A DNA stretch of 36,080 bases from a virus. Lineage: Duplodnaviria > Caudoviricetes. The DNA is taken from positions 1 to 36,080 of the IMG/VR virus record IMGVR_UViG_3300025251_000035; one strand, written 5' to 3'. This document shows positions 695 to 35,926 of the stretch, one piece after another. Below the pieces are notes generated by a model. It saw only the letters and a list, made by a program, of their open reading frames with translations. It was not told where the DNA came from and did no database searches. The translations under genes and the position numbers were made by a program. Position 1 is the stretch's first letter, and each line of letters starts with the position of its first letter.

Positions 695-1205
695 GATTAT
701 CTAACCTCTTTTCATAGACTGTATAAGTGCGATTAAACCCATCCTGCTCCAGCCATTTCCAAAATCCATGCCTGCCCGTCACTTCAATACCAGCACAGCT
801 ATTATCAGCAGCCCAACCATTAAACCGATCAAGCATATCCCAGACCCAATCATTAAATTTCGAGCCTCCTAAAAACTGCACCGCCAACATTTGCTGGCAT
901 GGGTAACGCACTATCTCAGTTGTTCCTACACCGTCAATCTGATTGTCTTTATCAAAAGCCAGCCACAAATGTTGCTGCCCATTCGCAATGGCCGCATACA
1001 AATACTCCAAATTCCAACGCCCATTAGACCTGTCAATAGCCGGAGCCAAATGATCCCGCACATCAAACCACAGCGAACTAATATAGTTCGGCGGCACCAA
1101 AGCAATCGTGTGAGTAATATCACGAGACTCATTCTGCGACCTGACTAAAGGCTCCTTGGCAGTCTCACTTAGATCGACTAACGCTAGTTGTGCTAATTCA
1201 GTCAT
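687..1205 (-). CDS. GNAT-fold acetyltransferase-like virion assembly protein
   Basis: HLWLAF..GVGTTEIVRYP..LAVQFLGG..WAADNSCAGIEVTGRHGFWKWL pattern; located between ejection-type genes, like T7 gp13/P22 gp14. Confidence 0.6.
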   Translation of the reverse strand: MTELAQLALVDLSETAKEPLVRSQNESRDITHTIALVPPNYISSLWFDVRDHLAPAIDRSNGRWNLEYLYAAIANGQQHLWLAFDKDNQIDGVGTTEIVRYPCQQMLAVQFLGGSKFNDWVWDMLDRFNGWAADNSCAGIEVTGRHGFWKWLEQDGFNRTYTVYEKRLDNHE

Positions 1206-17158: not shown

Positions 17159-17743
17159 TTAGCTATCAACAAATGGTGTGGCTAATGTTCCATCACCCAT
17201 CAGGAATGCCTCAACCCACCAAGTGGTAGTGTTAACGCCAGTAAGTAATATCCATCCACCTGTTAACCAGCCTTGCTCCACCTCACCTAGATCAATAATG
17301 TCGTTAGAGGATGCCGGATGAAAATTATCTGTTTCGCCAATCTCGCCTGTATCAAACAGGAACGCCGTACCTAGAAACCCATCGGTTCCATCAGTCGTCG
17401 CTGTTTTGATCTGTCCCGCCCCAGTAAAGGTTGTTTCAACGAGAAATTTGTAAACGATTCCCGCTGCCGGAGTAGGCAACGTAACCACGATACCACCCGC
17501 TCTGTTAAAACCAAAAACGGTTCCAGTATCGGCTGATGTCAGAGTTTTTGTTGCTGCTGTGATTGACTCATAGTCAGAGAGGATGTTCGCCGCTCCGGTT
17601 AGCTTCAACGTACCCGAACCAGATACATTTCCGCTTGAGTCGATGTCGAAATTGTTTGTGACCGTGCCGGTTCCAGCAGCTTTACTGATTTGCTCAAAGC
17701 CGCCTTCAGACCTAACTGGGCCGTTAAAAGTTGTGTTAGCCAT
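17159..17743 (-). CDS. Putative minor capsid/decoration protein
   Basis: Immediately downstream of the capsid gene; MANTTFNGPVRS start; VVTLPTPAAG motif. Confidence 0.55.
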   Translation of the reverse strand: MANTTFNGPVRSEGGFEQISKAAGTGTVTNNFDIDSSGNVSGSGTLKLTGAANILSDYESITAATKTLTSADTGTVFGFNRAGGIVVTLPTPAAGIVYKFLVETTFTGAGQIKTATTDGTDGFLGTAFLFDTGEIGETDNFHPASSNDIIDLGEVEQGWLTGGWILLTGVNTTTWWVEAFLMGDGTLATPFVDS

Positions 17744-17861
17744 GTCTTTCTCCTGTCTTGGCTAGTGTCTGCCGCATTATTGCGACAGTCAGGAAAAAGA
17801 GAGCGATAACTTACAAGTTATATCATATCAAGCAAGTACCGCTCCCCATATTCCGAGCTAA

Positions 17862-19878: not shown

Positions 19879-20980
19879 TTGCCATCTCCTTTGCAAGTTG
19901 TTTGGCATACTGATTATTCGTTAACCCCAGTCTCTTAGCGAGGGAGACTTGAGTGGACGTCAACCGCACTTTGCGTGGCCTTGCACCGTTATTCCTTGCG
20001 GACGGTGCAACAACCGACGTTGCCGAAGCTCTCCTGGTCGTCGCGGTCGCGGATTGTCCAGTTCCACCTTGATCCGACCAAGAGTAATTGGGAAATTGTT
20101 TCCGCATTCCCGTGTTAATGTAATCATAATACTCATCCGATTTCAGATCCATATGAAGGTCGCCCTTTGCCGTTTCATGTAAGGCATAAGCAACCGCACT
20201 CATCAACTTTTCTTTAGGATCACCAAACCATTTATTTTCCTCAGCCCACACTTTTTGCTTCTCATCAAGCTGCGGAGGCTTCTGGGCAGCAGCCTGCTGC
20301 TGAAGCTGTTGCTGATATGCAGCTTGTTGCTGTTGCTGATATGCAATTTGTTGCTGTTGCTGATAAGCCGCCTGCTGTTGCGCAAGCTGATTAGGGTCAG
20401 GTAAATTTCTTTCGTATTGCTCGGCTTCATTAAGCTCCGACTGCGCTCTGATCATATTCTCCTGCGCATCAACCACGTTATCAGTGTTGCCTTCTTCATA
20501 AGCCTTTCGATAACTTGATTTAGCTTTATCAACTGCCAGTTTAGCCCGTTCTTTTACTTGCGTAATTAACGCACCTTCACCGCGCTGAATAAGAGCTTCC
20601 ATCTCCTGATTTCTGCCAACCTGCTGTTGAGCGAAATTAACCGCTTCATCACGCAACCGTTGAGCTTCTTCCTTCTGACGACGCTCCTCATGCTGTGCAA
20701 AGCGCAGCTTATCAATACGCTTTTGAACTTTCTTGCTGTAACCATCCAGTTCCTTATCATCAGTATCCCCATAATCATCGCTATCAACAGACTTACTAGT
20801 CCTGGGGAAAGGACGATCTTCAAGAGGACGATCATCCACAATCTCAATATCAAACTCGGACTTATTTTCGGTTTGATCTTCAGACCGCTTACCTATCTTC
20901 GTACGCACCCCAAAGAATTTTTCTTCTGCTGAATGCGTACCTTGTGCGCCGCTCTCAACGACATTTTCTGATTCGCTCAT
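19871..20980 (-). CDS. Putative capsid scaffolding protein
   Basis: Acidic N-terminus, long coiled coil, NKWFG, C-terminal LTSTQVSLAKRLGL..YAK; lies between portal and capsid genes. Confidence 0.7.
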   Translation of the reverse strand: MSESENVVESGAQGTHSAEEKFFGVRTKIGKRSEDQTENKSEFDIEIVDDRPLEDRPFPRTSKSVDSDDYGDTDDKELDGYSKKVQKRIDKLRFAQHEERRQKEEAQRLRDEAVNFAQQQVGRNQEMEALIQRGEGALITQVKERAKLAVDKAKSSYRKAYEEGNTDNVVDAQENMIRAQSELNEAEQYERNLPDPNQLAQQQAAYQQQQQIAYQQQQQAAYQQQLQQQAAAQKPPQLDEKQKVWAEENKWFGDPKEKLMSAVAYALHETAKGDLHMDLKSDEYYDYINTGMRKQFPNYSWSDQGGTGQSATATTRRASATSVVAPSARNNGARPRKVRLTSTQVSLAKRLGLTNNQYAKQLAKEMANG

Positions 20981-21375
20981 ACCTTTACGATACCTCGCGG
21001 GTCTTCAACTACAGCTTCCACACTGTCATCATTAATCAACCGAAATTCCTTGCCATGAACCATAAACCGCGTACCTGAATACGCACGCATCACGATCCAA
21101 TCGCCCTTTTCACAAAACGGACCTGACGGGAAACGCTCGGCGTTTTTATAAGCATCCGGCCCCATAGCAATAACAAAGCCCACAATAGATCCCACCTCTT
21201 CGGTATGAATCGTTTGTTTCGCTTTAATAATACCGCCATCGGTTTTCTCATCTGGTTCGGGTAAGGCAATCAGTATCTTGTAACCTTTCGGCTTCGGCAT
21301 CTGACTGGCTTTACGAGCACTTGCTTCATCAATATCTATCGGCTCGGTTTTTACTGTTGCTAATGAACTAGCCAT
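20977..21375 (-). CDS. groES: Co-chaperonin GroES-like protein
   Basis: PKGYKILI..EKTDGGII..GFVIAMGPDAY..GDWIVMRAYSGT..EFRLINDDSVEAVV; start uncertain (21375 or 21423). Confidence 0.88.
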   Translation of the reverse strand: MASSLATVKTEPIDIDEASARKASQMPKPKGYKILIALPEPDEKTDGGIIKAKQTIHTEEVGSIVGFVIAMGPDAYKNAERFPSGPFCEKGDWIVMRAYSGTRFMVHGKEFRLINDDSVEAVVEDPRGIVKV

Positions 21376-21438
21376 TAATAAAAAGACCTTGCACTGGAAA
21401 ACGGCGTCCAGAGTCGCCTGCACCGCTTATGCGGAGAA

Positions 21439-25867: not shown

Positions 25868-25888
25868 AAAATAACTAATTCCTTTTAT

Positions 25889-25994
25889 CTAGGATTATCC
25901 TAGCTAGGAACATCCTAACTAGAATATTCCTTATAAAAAAACAGGATATTCCTAGTATCCTAGGATTATCCTAGTAGGAACCATCTAGGATTAT
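25889..25994. repeat. Array of about six 15-bp palindromes CTAGGA-N3-TCCTAG
   Basis: Perfect copies at 25889-25903 and 25960-25974; degenerate copies at 25904, 25919, 25941 and 25974. Confidence 0.85.
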
Positions 25995-27276: not shown

Positions 27277-27350
27277 CCGTGGGTCTGTGAATGAACACAC
27301 TGACGAGAGTCCGCCTATCATTAGGGAGGACTCAAGAAACTTAACAACGG
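27277..27350 (+). ncRNA. Variant type III hammerhead ribozyme (HH1)
   Basis: GGGT-C^-TGTG/CACA (stem I)-CTGACGA-GAGTCC/GGACTC (stem II)-AA insertion-GAA-ACTT; stem III extended by CCGT/ACGG; predicted cut after 27285. Confidence 0.55.
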
Positions 27351-27670: not shown

Positions 27671-27937
27671 ATGAGCAAGGTCAATTTTAAAGTGAAAGAA
27701 ATAGGTGAGCTGGTTTTATTCACGCCTCAGAATGAGGACGCTACGAACTGGTGGCTGAACAACGTGCCCGAGGAATTTTACATTAAGGACAGCTTTTCCA
27801 ACAACCTCCTCTCACGCCGACACTATGGCGGTTTCCACACATTCGGCAAATCGTTCGTCGCGCCAATCAAGCACGCACGCAAGATTTGGAGCGACATCTG
27901 CACTGCCAATGGCAGCCATGGCTGGAGTGTTGCATAG
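27671..27937 (+). CDS. Hypothetical protein
   Basis: 88 aa; AAGGAG SD. Confidence 0.7.
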   Translation: MSKVNFKVKEIGELVLFTPQNEDATNWWLNNVPEEFYIKDSFSNNLLSRRHYGGFHTFGKSFVAPIKHARKIWSDICTANGSHGWSVA

Positions 27938-27938
27938 A

Positions 27939-27996
27939 TTCCAACCGATGAGACCAGACGGTAACTGGTCGAAACGCCCTTCGGGGCGTCTTGGAA
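27939..27996 (+). ncRNA. Type I hammerhead ribozyme (HH2; U4C core variant)
   Basis: TTCCAA-CCGATGA-GACCAG/CTGGTC-GAA-ACGCCC(TTCG)GGGCGT-C^-TTGGAA; all three stems perfect; predicted cut after 27990. Confidence 0.88.
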
Positions 27997-28017
27997 AACC
28001 AACAAGAGGAACATGAT

Positions 28018-29052
28018 ATGAAACTACCGAAAATTAATTTAGTGCAAAGCGTAGAGTTCTTGCACGCATGGGTCCTTGCCGGCAATAGCAAGCCGGTGAT
28101 CCTGTGGGGTCCACCGGGAGTCGGCAAGTCAGCGGTCATCAAGGCGCTGGCCGAAGAACTTGAGTACGGCTTCATCGACATTCGATTGTCGCAACTGGAC
28201 CCGGTCGATTTGCGTGGTGTCCCGTCAATAGATGGAGATATCACCAAGTGGAATGTCCCGTCGTGGCTGCCACGCACAGAGACACACGGAAAGAAGGGCA
28301 TTCTGTTCTTCGATGAGCTGTTTCTGGCATCGCGCTCTGTTCAGGCAGCAGCATACCAGTTGCTGCATGATCGCGAACTGGGAGACTACCGTCTGCCGGA
28401 AGGATGGATCATTCTGGTAGCTACCAACAGGCCGGAAGACAAGGCCGGTATCATTGGCGGCACTTTCGACAGTGCGCTGGTCAATCGCTTTGCTACGCAT
28501 TTCGAGATCGTACCTGATGTCGATGCATGGGCAGAGTGGGCCTTAGGTGCTGGAGACGTATTGCCCGAACTGGTTGCCTTCATCCGGTTTCGCCCGGAGC
28601 TACTGCATCAGTTCGCCGAAGGCGGCATTCCGAAAGGCACCGTTGCCTATTCGACGCCGCGATCTCTCGTTGCGGCTTCGGATATTTTGAAGCTGGAACT
28701 TGATGCCAGCCTCGAACAGGCAGCTATCGAAGGTGCACTTGGTGATTCAGTTGCAGCCGAGCTGGCTGGATTCCTGAACATCGTGCGCACCCTGCCCGAC
28801 GTCAATGGAATTCTCAGGGACCCACAGGGCGCTGATCTCCCGACGGAAACATCCACGCTGTACGCTCTTGCGTCGTTACTCGGCAAGCGTGCGGACCGGG
28901 AGAACTTTCAGGCCGCACTTGATTACCTGTCGCGGACCAGCGAAGAGTTCGCAATCCTTGCAGTCGCGATCGCAACGGCACGAGATCCGGACCTGAAGGC
29001 AACCAAGGCGTACATAAATTTCAAAATCAAGAATAAGGACATCAGTATTTGA
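28018..29052 (+). CDS. MoxR-like AAA+ ATPase
   Basis: Walker A GPPGVGKS, DLRGVP, Walker B FFDEL, sensor ATNR, ALVNRF, TPRS; start moved to ATG 28018 after a GAGGA SD. Confidence 0.92.
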   Translation: MKLPKINLVQSVEFLHAWVLAGNSKPVILWGPPGVGKSAVIKALAEELEYGFIDIRLSQLDPVDLRGVPSIDGDITKWNVPSWLPRTETHGKKGILFFDELFLASRSVQAAAYQLLHDRELGDYRLPEGWIILVATNRPEDKAGIIGGTFDSALVNRFATHFEIVPDVDAWAEWALGAGDVLPELVAFIRFRPELLHQFAEGGIPKGTVAYSTPRSLVAASDILKLELDASLEQAAIEGALGDSVAAELAGFLNIVRTLPDVNGILRDPQGADLPTETSTLYALASLLGKRADRENFQAALDYLSRTSEEFAILAVAIATARDPDLKATKAYINFKIKNKDISI

Positions 29053-29055
29053 TTA

Positions 29056-29112
29056 TCCAACTGAAGAGACTGTTTGCACCAGTCGAAACACCGCGCAATG
29101 CGGTGTCTTGGA
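29056..29112 (+). ncRNA. Type I hammerhead ribozyme (HH3; canonical core)
   Basis: TCCAA-CTGAAGA-GACTG/CAGTC-GAA-ACACCGC/GCGGTGT-C^-TTGGA; predicted cut after 29107. Confidence 0.93.
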
Positions 29113-29140: not shown

Positions 29141-30028
29141 ATGAACACAACAACTACGATTCAGGAACAGGCGCTGCTCGTGCGCGTCGTAATCCGTAAA
29201 TGGTCGAATGCCAAGACCGATAGCGGATTGACGCAAGCCGTTGAAGCGGACAACAACATCGTCGGCAGCGGTTTGCTGCGCGTCCGCAAAACATTGCTGG
29301 TCGCACCGACCGTCAAGGCGCTCGGCAAACTCTCGGGCCAGATCCGTAACAACATCGTCGGAAAATTGACGGTCCCTTGGAACGAGGATGGAACGCGATT
29401 GCTGCCGGTCGAACTGATCGATCGTTTTGAGAAAGAGCTATCAGATGCCAAGGTTTACTGGGATGAACTCAAGTCAGAACTCGGCGATGATTATGATCTG
29501 GAAATTGAGAAGGCAAAGATTAGTCTTAACGGCGCCTTCAATGAAGCCGATTATCCTGCAAAGCAGGACATTCTCGATCGCTACTCACTGACAGCGCACT
29601 ACTCGCCGCTGCCGACCGGTGGTGATTTGCGGATTTCATTGCCGCAGGCCAAGCTGGACAAACTCCGCTCAGAGGTAGAGGCGAACGTCAAGGGCGCCCT
29701 TGAAAAGGGCACCAAGCAAGTGCACGAACGGGTTGCCCATGCCTTGGGACATCTTGTCGAGAAGCTGGATAAATTCGGCATAGACAAGAATGGCAAGGTC
29801 ATCGGCGCTTTTCGCGATTCAACTGTTCAGAACCTGAACGAACTGGCAGAAGTTCTGCCGTTGTTGAATATCACCGGCGATTCTACGCTGACCAAAATCA
29901 GCAATGACTTGCTATCCCAATTGCGTAATCTTGATCCGAAGAAACTTCGCGACGATACCAGTCATCGAAGGGACGTTGCCGGCAAGGCACGCAAAATCGC
30001 AAAATCACTTTCTGGCTTTTATAGCTGA
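29141..30028 (+). CDS. Helical protein, DUF3150-like
   Basis: TVPW..GTRLLP..F..DYP pattern; lies between AAA and VWA genes; ATG 29141 with GAGGA SD. Confidence 0.6.
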   Translation: MNTTTTIQEQALLVRVVIRKWSNAKTDSGLTQAVEADNNIVGSGLLRVRKTLLVAPTVKALGKLSGQIRNNIVGKLTVPWNEDGTRLLPVELIDRFEKELSDAKVYWDELKSELGDDYDLEIEKAKISLNGAFNEADYPAKQDILDRYSLTAHYSPLPTGGDLRISLPQAKLDKLRSEVEANVKGALEKGTKQVHERVAHALGHLVEKLDKFGIDKNGKVIGAFRDSTVQNLNELAEVLPLLNITGDSTLTKISNDLLSQLRNLDPKKLRDDTSHRRDVAGKARKIAKSLSGFYS

Positions 30029-30038
30029 GGTAATGACA

Positions 30039-31322
30039 ATGACTTCTAATCACAGTAAAAAAAGACAGGCGCTGGACGCCTTGAAAAAAGCACGAGCACA
30101 TCTGGTCGTCAGGCATCCGTTTTTCGGGTGTCTGGCGCTCGGACTGGAGCTGGTCGAATCAGATGACACTGCCACGTTAGCGACTGACGGCAGTTCTATT
30201 TTCTATAATGTCGATTTCACTTTGTCCCTGACGCTGAAGGAACTGGCGTCGGTCATTGCGCACGAAGTGTTGCATGTAACATTCAAGCACCATTTGCGCA
30301 GAGGGACTCGTGATCCTCAACAATGGAATGTAGCAGCGGATTACGCCATCAATGGGATTCTGATCAAAAGTAAATTGTTCAATCTGCCGGACGGTGGATT
30401 GTTTGACCCTAAGTATCAGGACTGGGGTACAGAAAAGATTTACGCTGATCTCCCGAAACCTGAAGAAGATAATCAGAACGATCCCGGCAGCCAAAGCGGG
30501 GAAGCTGATTACGGAGCCGGCGGTCCCGGTCAGTCTGCTGATGATGCAGCAGAAAATGGCGGTGATGCCGATGGTCCGGGTGATGCATCCGAAGACAGCA
30601 AGCCGGCGCCTGTTGGTGAGATATGGGACGCCAAATCCGATGAAGGCAACGAACTTTCTCCGGCAGAAATTGCCTCTGCTGAACGTCATATTGACTCGCA
30701 AATACATATTGCAGCACAGGCTGAGAAGTCCATAGGCACCGGATCAAATGCCGTTGCCGACGGGATTTTAAAAGGATTATCAGAAGTGAGCGTGCCTTGG
30801 GTCGATGTCTTGAAAGACTATTTGCTGGCAACACATGAGGAAGACTATTCTTTGAACCAGCCAAATCGACGGTTCATTCACCAAGGACTTTATCTTCCCG
30901 CTCCTGTGCATATTCCCGCAGGGAGCTTGGTGCATGCGATTGACATTAGCGGCAGTTTGAGCCGCAAAGAACTGGAAATCATAGCCGCCAACATCAATGA
31001 CATCAACGACGTGCTGCAACCTGCACAAACGCATGTCATTTATTGCGACACCACAATTGTCAACGTCGATACTTTTGATGCCGGCGAAGACATAACGCTG
31101 ACTTACTATCACGGGGGCGGCACCGAATTCGCGCCGCCATTCAACTGGTGCCTCGCAAATGATGTACGTCCTGATGCCCTCATCTATTTCACGGATGGGT
31201 GCGGGACTGTCGGCGGTTCCAAGCGTCTTGACGAGGAGCCAGATTATCCGGTCGTCTGGGCAACAAGTTACAAGGCACCACGTTTTGCCGGGAACGAATT
31301 CGGCGGAGTCATCAAAATTTAA
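30039..31322 (+). CDS. HExxH metallopeptidase-like plus VWA-like domain protein (DUF2201-like)
   Basis: HPFFG, TLATDG, HEVLH, WNVAADYAIN; MIDAS DISGS, GGGTEF, YFTDG; start ATG 30039 or 30033. Confidence 0.88.
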   Translation: MTSNHSKKRQALDALKKARAHLVVRHPFFGCLALGLELVESDDTATLATDGSSIFYNVDFTLSLTLKELASVIAHEVLHVTFKHHLRRGTRDPQQWNVAADYAINGILIKSKLFNLPDGGLFDPKYQDWGTEKIYADLPKPEEDNQNDPGSQSGEADYGAGGPGQSADDAAENGGDADGPGDASEDSKPAPVGEIWDAKSDEGNELSPAEIASAERHIDSQIHIAAQAEKSIGTGSNAVADGILKGLSEVSVPWVDVLKDYLLATHEEDYSLNQPNRRFIHQGLYLPAPVHIPAGSLVHAIDISGSLSRKELEIIAANINDINDVLQPAQTHVIYCDTTIVNVDTFDAGEDITLTYYHGGGTEFAPPFNWCLANDVRPDALIYFTDGCGTVGGSKRLDEEPDYPVVWATSYKAPRFAGNEFGGVIKI

Positions 31323-31573: not shown

Positions 31574-31601
31574 TGCAGCCTTCTCAAGAGGGCTGCATTT
31601 T
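31574..31601 (+). terminator. Putative intrinsic terminator
   Basis: TGCAGCCTTC-TCAA-GAGGGCTGCA-TTTT. Confidence 0.65.
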
Positions 31602-31628
31602 GACTAGATTTAATTTTAGGAGAAAAGA

Positions 31629-34990: not shown

Positions 34991-35030
34991 TGGATTGACC
35001 CCTCAATATTTACATGCTGGAATTTTTTGT

Positions 35031-35098
35031 TCTTCCTAGGAAGATCCTAGTTTGTATATATATATACCTAGGAACTTCCTAGGACAGGAATGTCCTAG
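35031..35098. repeat. Cluster of CTAGGA-N3-TCCTAG palindromes flanking a TA dinucleotide tract
   Basis: Copies at 35036-35050 and 35068-35082; GTATATATATATAC at 35054-35067; CTAGGACA-GGAA-TGTCCTAG at 35079-35098. Confidence 0.85.
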
Positions 35099-35623: not shown

Positions 35624-35926
35624 ATGAACGACAAAAAAACAGTGTTGATCGAAACTAACGTGCCGATTCCAGCCGGCAAGCAGAACGAGAAAGAACCGCT
35701 GCCAAATCTGCCTCTAAAGCAGATGCAACCGGGGCAATCCTTTCTGCTTGAAACAAAAGATGACGACCATACTCGACGCAAACTGTCGGCAGTTCGTAGC
35801 TCGATCAGGCGCTTCATCCAAACGGATAATCCGGCAAACAAATTCAGGGTATTTCGGTGGACAGAAGGAAGAGATCGATATGGGGTCCGTGTATTTTGCG
35901 TGAGCGACGATGAAATTAACGAATAA
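35624..35926 (+). CDS. Small basic protein, probable DNA-binding
   Basis: IETNVPIP..PLKQMQPGQSFLL..GVRVFCV; ATG 35624 after AGGGAG. Confidence 0.6.
   Translation: MNDKKTVLIETNVPIPAGKQNEKEPLPNLPLKQMQPGQSFLLETKDDDHTRRKLSAVRSSIRRFIQTDNPANKFRVFRWTEGRDRYGVRVFCVSDDEINE

Follow-up and report, generated by a model that had tools for sequence, protein, structure and literature searches.

Hammerhead ribozymes on either side of a phage AAA ATPase gene as candidate self-cutting gene punctuation

In the phage DNA analyzed here (36,080 nt, referred to throughout as the window), a gene for a MoxR-like AAA ATPase lies between two type I hammerhead ribozyme motifs, HH2 and HH3. We consider it probable, at roughly 70%, that these ribozymes act singly as punctuation, splitting a long transcript into linear, gene-sized mRNAs. 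An initial annotation of this DNA had proposed that the ATPase mRNA is cut out by both ribozymes and circularizes through their matching stem I arms. The features needed for the argument are as follows.

Whole window: source record, tailed-phage window, estimated completeness 61%
27280..27343, plus strand: type III-like hammerhead, predicted cut after 27285, with two extra A residues between stem II and GAAA
27362..27640, plus strand: 92-aa ORF, no Pfam, PHROG or NCBIfam match
27671..27937, plus strand: 88-aa ORF, no Pfam or PHROG match
27939..28001, plus strand: HH2, type I hammerhead (structural scan, sub-threshold Rfam match)
27991..29107, plus strand: doubly cut RNA of 1117 nt, predicted from the HH2 and HH3 cut sites
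28005..28010, plus strand: Shine-Dalgarno-like AGAGGA ahead of the ATPase start ATG at 28018 (from the sequence)
28018..29052, plus strand: MoxR-like AAA ATPase, 344 aa (Pfam AAA/AAA_5; phrog_1297, E value 6.6e-77; annotated phage matches)
29056..29117, plus strand: HH3, type I hammerhead (structural scan, sub-threshold Rfam match)
29141..30028, plus strand: 295-aa ORF 3' of HH3, no Pfam, PHROG or NCBIfam match
30033..31322, plus strand: DUF2201 putative metallopeptidase with VWA-like domain (Pfam)
31574..31607, plus strand: terminator-like 10-bp hairpin with a T tail (terminator scan)

The minus strand of the window carries terminase, portal, capsid, adaptor, tail and lysis genes (Pfam, PHROG). 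The plus-strand arm begins divergently from the small terminase gene and contains the two small ORFs, the ATPase gene, the 295-aa ORF and the DUF2201/VWA gene; we infer that it is an early unit. Of the 15 related loci in which a hammerhead and a large terminase match were both present, 13 had the terminase upstream and on the opposite strand. The ATPase is related to the N4 gp24-type phage ATPases, and the DUF2201 gene is the usual neighbor of ATPases of this type and co-occurs with them in relatives. The 295-aa ORF gave a lead to DUF3150-like viral clusters, in which that family is found on only 12-17% of members. The hairpin at 31574..31607 is a possible end of the plus-strand unit, with the terminator scan as a whole at chance level (8 matches, 6.0 expected); neither the promoter nor the terminator scan of the window gave more matches than chance. 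Elsewhere in the window, a GroES-like co-chaperonin gene (20977-21423, minus strand; Pfam, PHROG) adjoins the portal gene, a tRNA-Leu gene occupies 35675-35750 (minus strand), and a Mu-gpT-DE RNA (17741-17794, minus strand) scoring 64.9 bits, above the Rfam cut-off, lies directly 3' of the major capsid gene. A match of the window to itself revealed an inverted repeat of about 34 bp at 25878-25981, in the gap between the large and small terminase genes, and a long near-palindrome at 35019-35098, between the RusA-like and primase-helicase genes, had a weak chance match to a miRNA model.

Both strands of the window were searched for hammerheads with a structural scan, which found three co-oriented motifs within 1.9 kb, all in intergenic gaps, and no compact hammerhead on the minus strand. 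In 20 dinucleotide shuffles of the window there was no type I match with stems of at least 5/5/6 bp. HH2 is formed by stem I (27939-27944/27991-27996), stem II (27952-27970, loop ACGGUAA) and stem III (27974-27989) of 6 bp each, around the core CCGAUGA at 27945-27951, with a predicted cut after 27990. HH3 has stems of 5/5/8 bp (stem I 29056-29060/29108-29112; stem II with loop UUUGCAC; stem III 29088-29106), the canonical core CUGAAGA at 29061-29067 and a predicted cut after 29107. Each has GUC as its cleavage triplet, in keeping with the NUH rule, and each shows the core, the three helices with an open stem I and the loop II tertiary contact of a type I hammerhead. The Rfam model RF00163 (Hammerhead_1) matched HH2 and HH3 at 31.5 and 23.6 bits, below its cut-off of 34. 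This model covers the subfamily poorly, giving no hammerhead match in 11 loci that contain one; the same Rfam scan found no other ribozyme in those 11 relatives, while also missing their known hammerheads. The third motif, at 27280..27343, is probably the HH1 of the initial annotation, and its self-cleavage is uncertain. It is kept, with changes and a shorter loop II, in L003, the closest relative of the locus (about 93% DNA identity), whose contig stops short of the HH3 site. Several related arrays also start with a type III hammerhead (L640, L594, L601, L014 and L127).

Relatives of HH2 and HH3 were collected from viral contigs with patterns of differing strictness. A pattern with the stem I arm fixed retrieved 131 stretches, from about 180 estimated in all, and a pattern with the first four stem I positions free retrieved 132, of which 131 loci were analyzed and 106 held a valid type I motif by structure. 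Two looser stem-I-free patterns (about 8,600 and 35,000 estimated stretches) contributed 240 loci that were excluded from hammerhead statistics. The family comprises at least 171 distinct motifs, found singly or in arrays of up to eight on tailed-phage contigs. Arrays of five to eight type I hammerheads within 3-5 kb were seen in L628 (4657-8773, plus strand), L616 (3303-7377, plus strand), L586, L623 and L640; the small genes of the L628 array are separated by two alternating arm types, CUAGA and GUGAG, and each type has a pseudoknot of its own.

The tertiary contact is a pseudoknot in which loop II pairs with the bases immediately past stem I. In HH2 it has 3 bp (GGU 27960-27962 with ACC 27998-28000) and in HH3 4 bp (UUGC 29074-29077 with GCAA 29114-29117), offset by one base to match the shorter stem II of HH3. 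Among motifs that had been found by stem I alone, with neither pseudoknot partner in the pattern, 57 of 64 could form four Watson-Crick pairs, compared with a mean of 25.7 and a maximum of 37 in shuffles, and the contact covaries, with G-C to A-U swaps among family motifs. When the pseudoknot of a type II ribozyme was shortened, disrupted or shifted, its rate fell by 20-fold to more than 100-fold, according to the available part of Perreault 2011 (PMC3088659).

Much of what the initial annotation had said about the excised RNA was borne out. A product of two hammerhead cuts begins with a 5'-OH and ends in a 2',3'-cyclic phosphate. The coordinates and length of the predicted 1117-nt piece agree with the description given earlier: it starts with UUGGAA, ends with the 5' arm, core, stems II and III and GUC of HH3, and holds the Shine-Dalgarno sequence, the whole ATPase ORF and its stop codon (TGA, 29050-29052). 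HH2 and HH3 do have a common 5-bp stem I (UCCAA/UUGGA) and otherwise unlike stems, with similarities of 0.42 for stem II and 0.45 for stem III. That an ATPase-only RNA is excised is a well-supported prediction, because two intact, co-oriented ribozymes flank the gene at its borders; HH2 is probably slow, on account of the core variant described below, and the 1117-nt piece may therefore make up no more than a part of the ATPase message. The first 12 nt of this piece can form a hairpin, UUGG-AAAA-CCAA, which is real here and may be incidental, the family mean for such hairpins having been reached by 225 of 1000 shuffles.

The positions of the ribozymes point to cutting between genes. HH2 and HH3, each with its own pseudoknot, follow the stop codon of one gene and precede the ribosome-binding site of the next, the stop of the 88-aa ORF being 1 nt ahead of stem I of HH2. 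Of 162 family motifs, 84 have an ORF stop ending between -1 and 10 nt ahead of stem I; for random positions the count was 149 of 4170. A Shine-Dalgarno sequence with an ATG lies within 15-70 nt 3' of the cut in 131 of 167 motifs, the distances to these starts being 22-67 nt. The cargo is varied: 137 downstream proteins formed 101 clusters, the largest of which (12 members) is the ATPase family of the window. Each cut would provide a short 5'-OH leader for the gene that follows, 27 nt long in the case of the ATPase. The gene before the cut would end in two hairpins and a cyclic phosphate, and the new ends would determine mRNA stability and amount for each gene separately. Effects on stability would come about through RNase E, to which 5'-OH ends are resistant, and through 3' exonucleases. 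Cutting may also be timed by translation because stem I begins 1-3 nt past the stop codon, a spacing at which a terminating ribosome would cover it. Any circle formed from the ATPase piece would be a by-product.

Relatives of the ATPase indicate which border matters. ATPase matches defined 243 loci, 208 of them distinct and 173 with both flanks available, the window included. The scanner placed a hammerhead only upstream in 11 of the 173 loci, only downstream in none and on both sides in two (one being the window), leaving 160 with none; several of the upstream-only loci had themselves been fetched by hammerhead patterns. One locus, L592, was reclassed by eye to both sides on the strength of a downstream type III hammerhead with a weak stem II, giving 10 upstream-only and two bracketed loci among 172 relatives. 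The bracketed relatives would be unable to rebuild a hybrid ribozyme because they mix types, L004/L646 having type III followed by type I and L592 the reverse. Eight of the 10 upstream-only loci have a plain GC hairpin just past the stop codon of the ATPase; six of the upstream-only loci are close kin and not independent. GC-rich hairpins in the HH3 slot were recorded in L209, L214, L365, L256, L223, L635, L594 and L102, with a UUCG loop in seven. By these sequence comparisons the upstream cut is the conserved element for the ATPase, while the downstream slot holds another ribozyme type, a plain hairpin or nothing. The cut is nonetheless dispensable, since 160 of 172 ATPase relatives have no border hammerhead and L127, with an ATPase 81% identical, lacks an intact one immediately ahead of the gene. 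What precedes that ATPase gene (L127, about 1158-1195, plus strand) is a long hairpin and then CUGAUG, with no GAAA, possibly a decayed hammerhead.

It is unlikely, in our estimate, that HH2 has largely decayed. HH3 would then be the only efficient cutter, leaving the ATPase attached to the small genes upstream and making the 1117-nt piece a minor product. HH2 carries a C at the conserved U4 position of the core, a variant with considerably lower activity in vitro, yet enough activity in vivo for viroid infectivity (available part of PMC3088659), and its pseudoknot has three pairs instead of four. The minimum-energy folds of HH2 and HH3 alone lack stem I, in a model that omits pseudoknots and tertiary contacts. 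Against decay, all three HH2 helices are perfect, the U4C core recurs in four other family members with intact stems, and L003 has a ribozyme with the canonical U4 at the same site. That ribozyme differs from HH2, with a U3-A8 core and another stem II, and is compensated; the differences between the window (27945-27970) and L003 (3925-3951) cluster in the core and stem II, while stem III and the flank are identical. The comparison suggests that core and stem II at the HH2 site were swapped or rapidly compensated, as in module exchange inside the ribozyme, and cutting at this site seems to be under selection because L003 has a different, compensated ribozyme there.

Matching arms are common in the family and do not by themselves speak for circularization. 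In the stem-I-free set, UUGGA was the modal arm (52 of 122 distinct motifs), and the probability that two random members have the same arm was 0.21. The set contained 48 adjacent ribozyme pairs, 42 of type I with type I and six of mixed types I and III. Arms were identical in 21 of the 42 type I pairs (50%, against 21% at random), and 16 of the 42 could pair stem I over at most 3 bp. Neighbors were alike in the other stems as well, in the first five bases of stem III in 33% (background 8%) and of stem II in 17% (background 4%), so that sharing is more enriched for stem III, which has no part in ring closure, than for stem I. Ancestry accounts for the matching arms because of this enrichment: likeness of neighbors in all stems, read from the sequences, is what duplication or conversion inside one genome would produce. 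The proposal that the arms match for the sake of circularization thus finds no support, and shared ancestry, which the initial annotation had itself offered as an alternative, fits better. Incompatible arms in paired ribozymes of relatives, which it had named as evidence against its proposal, are seen in both bracketed ATPase relatives and in 22 of the 48 adjacent array pairs.

The same likeness of neighbors in all three stems beyond the family background could indicate that the motifs persist mainly as cassette borders, each a ribozyme with a Shine-Dalgarno sequence, that help genes to be gained, lost and shuffled through DNA recombination, RNA cutting being secondary. The great diversity of cargo and the clustered differences between the window and L003 agree with such a role. 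However, compensatory changes have preserved the catalytic cores and pseudoknots, for which a pure DNA repeat would have no need, and HH2 and HH3 have only short identity with each other. We rate a main role as cassette borders as unlikely.

Closure of the 1117-nt piece into a functional circular mRNA, either by self-ligation of a hybrid HH3/HH2 ribozyme or by a host RtcB for which the 5-bp stem would serve as splint, has several points in its favor. The ends of the piece are chemically suitable. In folds of the naked RNA at 37 C the hybrid stem I had pair probabilities of 0.17-0.28 (0.11-0.14 at 15 C), and imposing this stem cost only 0.9 kcal/mol. For 21 related pieces with identical arms, up to 950 nt long, the median hybrid probability was 0.44, with 10 pieces at 0.5 or above. 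RtcB, which is common in prokaryotes and present in 10 of 14 control genomes, would manage without the pseudoknot, and in vitro it closed about 30-80% of type I retrozyme monomers into circles (available part of PMC7229834).

The hybrid was said to rebuild a full hammerhead, and this holds for the core and helices but not for the tertiary contact, since the loop of HH3 and the flank of HH2 form none of the four native pseudoknot pairs in register. It is the only zero-register case among 51 adjacent type I pairs, with 3-bp off-register pairings still possible. Shifted or disrupted contacts slow such ribozymes by the factors given above, tertiary contacts are reported to raise ligation about 2000-fold, and self-ligation reached no more than 1-3% even for retrozyme monomers with a perfect match (available part of PMC7229834). 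The local 5' hairpin outcompetes the hybrid stem (about 0.63-0.64 against 0.28 at 37 C), and a ring, once closed, would still have an intact core with which it could cut itself again. No relative has a ligation-compatible bracket around the ATPase, and no RtcB gene was found in the window or in five array-bearing records at least 93% complete; the part of PMC11592204 available to us does not mention RtcB. Circles were sought in such clusters by Perreault 2011 and, in the available part of that paper, none was detected (PMC3088659). A functional circular mRNA from the ATPase locus is possible but decidedly unlikely.

For the group as a whole, phages might make natural circular mRNAs from single-gene RNAs that are released by neighboring type I hammerheads with matching arms; their ends would re-pair and be sealed by host RtcB or slow self-ligation, and differing arms within an array would select the genes that become circles. 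We find this improbable, and the ATPase piece would be a weak example of it. Counting against separate cutters, however, half of the 42 adjacent type I pairs have identical stem I arms, and in 18 of the 42 (stem-I-free set) the hybrid would also retain the pseudoknot. Pieces from L264, L312 and L628 keep both, with predicted hybrid probabilities of 0.76-0.94, and on these models would be better test cases for circles than the ATPase piece. Should circles exist, a DNA phage would be making circular mRNAs naturally by means of ribozymes, a case of which there was none, by title or abstract, in the literature searched.

The family offers a usable test set for the purpose of phage hammerhead arrays: its distinct motifs include natural pairs able and unable to form a hybrid and a weakened variant beside a canonical one, and some relatives have a plain hairpin where the downstream ribozyme would be.

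Among known systems, metazoan retrozymes resemble this locus in having tandem type I hammerheads that release a unit with 5'-OH and cyclic-phosphate ends, closable by tRNA ligase (available part of PMC7229834). They are tandem repeats of one 170-400-nt unit, and closure restores the native ribozyme (same source), whereas the unit in the window is a coding RNA of 1117 nt, present once and flanked by ribozymes that differ from each other, and its circle is hypothetical. Retrozymes and viroid-like RNAs have the same ribozyme as direct repeats, but here stems II and III differ and the hybrid loses the pseudoknot; theirs is a small, non-coding unit that is multicopy or has ribozymes in both polarities, and here it is coding and single copy, with compact hammerheads on the plus strand only. 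The 5'-UTR ribozymes of fungal and plant RNA viruses are likewise type I hammerheads placed before a coding region, where they make a new 5' end and not a circle; they serve eukaryotic cap-independent translation, unlike the genes of this DNA phage, which are led by Shine-Dalgarno sequences (available part of PMC13725137).

The closest likeness is to the prophage clusters of Perreault 2011, and the layout of phage genes bracketed by hammerheads has been known since then. In the available part of that paper (PMC3088659), hammerheads flank single genes or gene blocks, and such clusters cleave in vitro and in E. coli, with three clusters shown; processing into gene-length mRNAs was proposed, spliced or circular products were raised with none detected, and the benefit of cutting was still unproven. 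The window belongs with these clusters by its intergenic, co-oriented motifs, its terminase, portal and capsid genes and its non-constant flanked genes, and it has in common with them the varying cargo, the pseudoknot contact and core variants including U4C. It differs from the clusters in that part of the paper in its cargo, a MoxR-like ATPase beside a DUF2201 gene, and in its type I subfamily with a fixed register between loop II and the 3' flank and sub-threshold Rfam scores, a subfamily that the supplements of the paper may already list.
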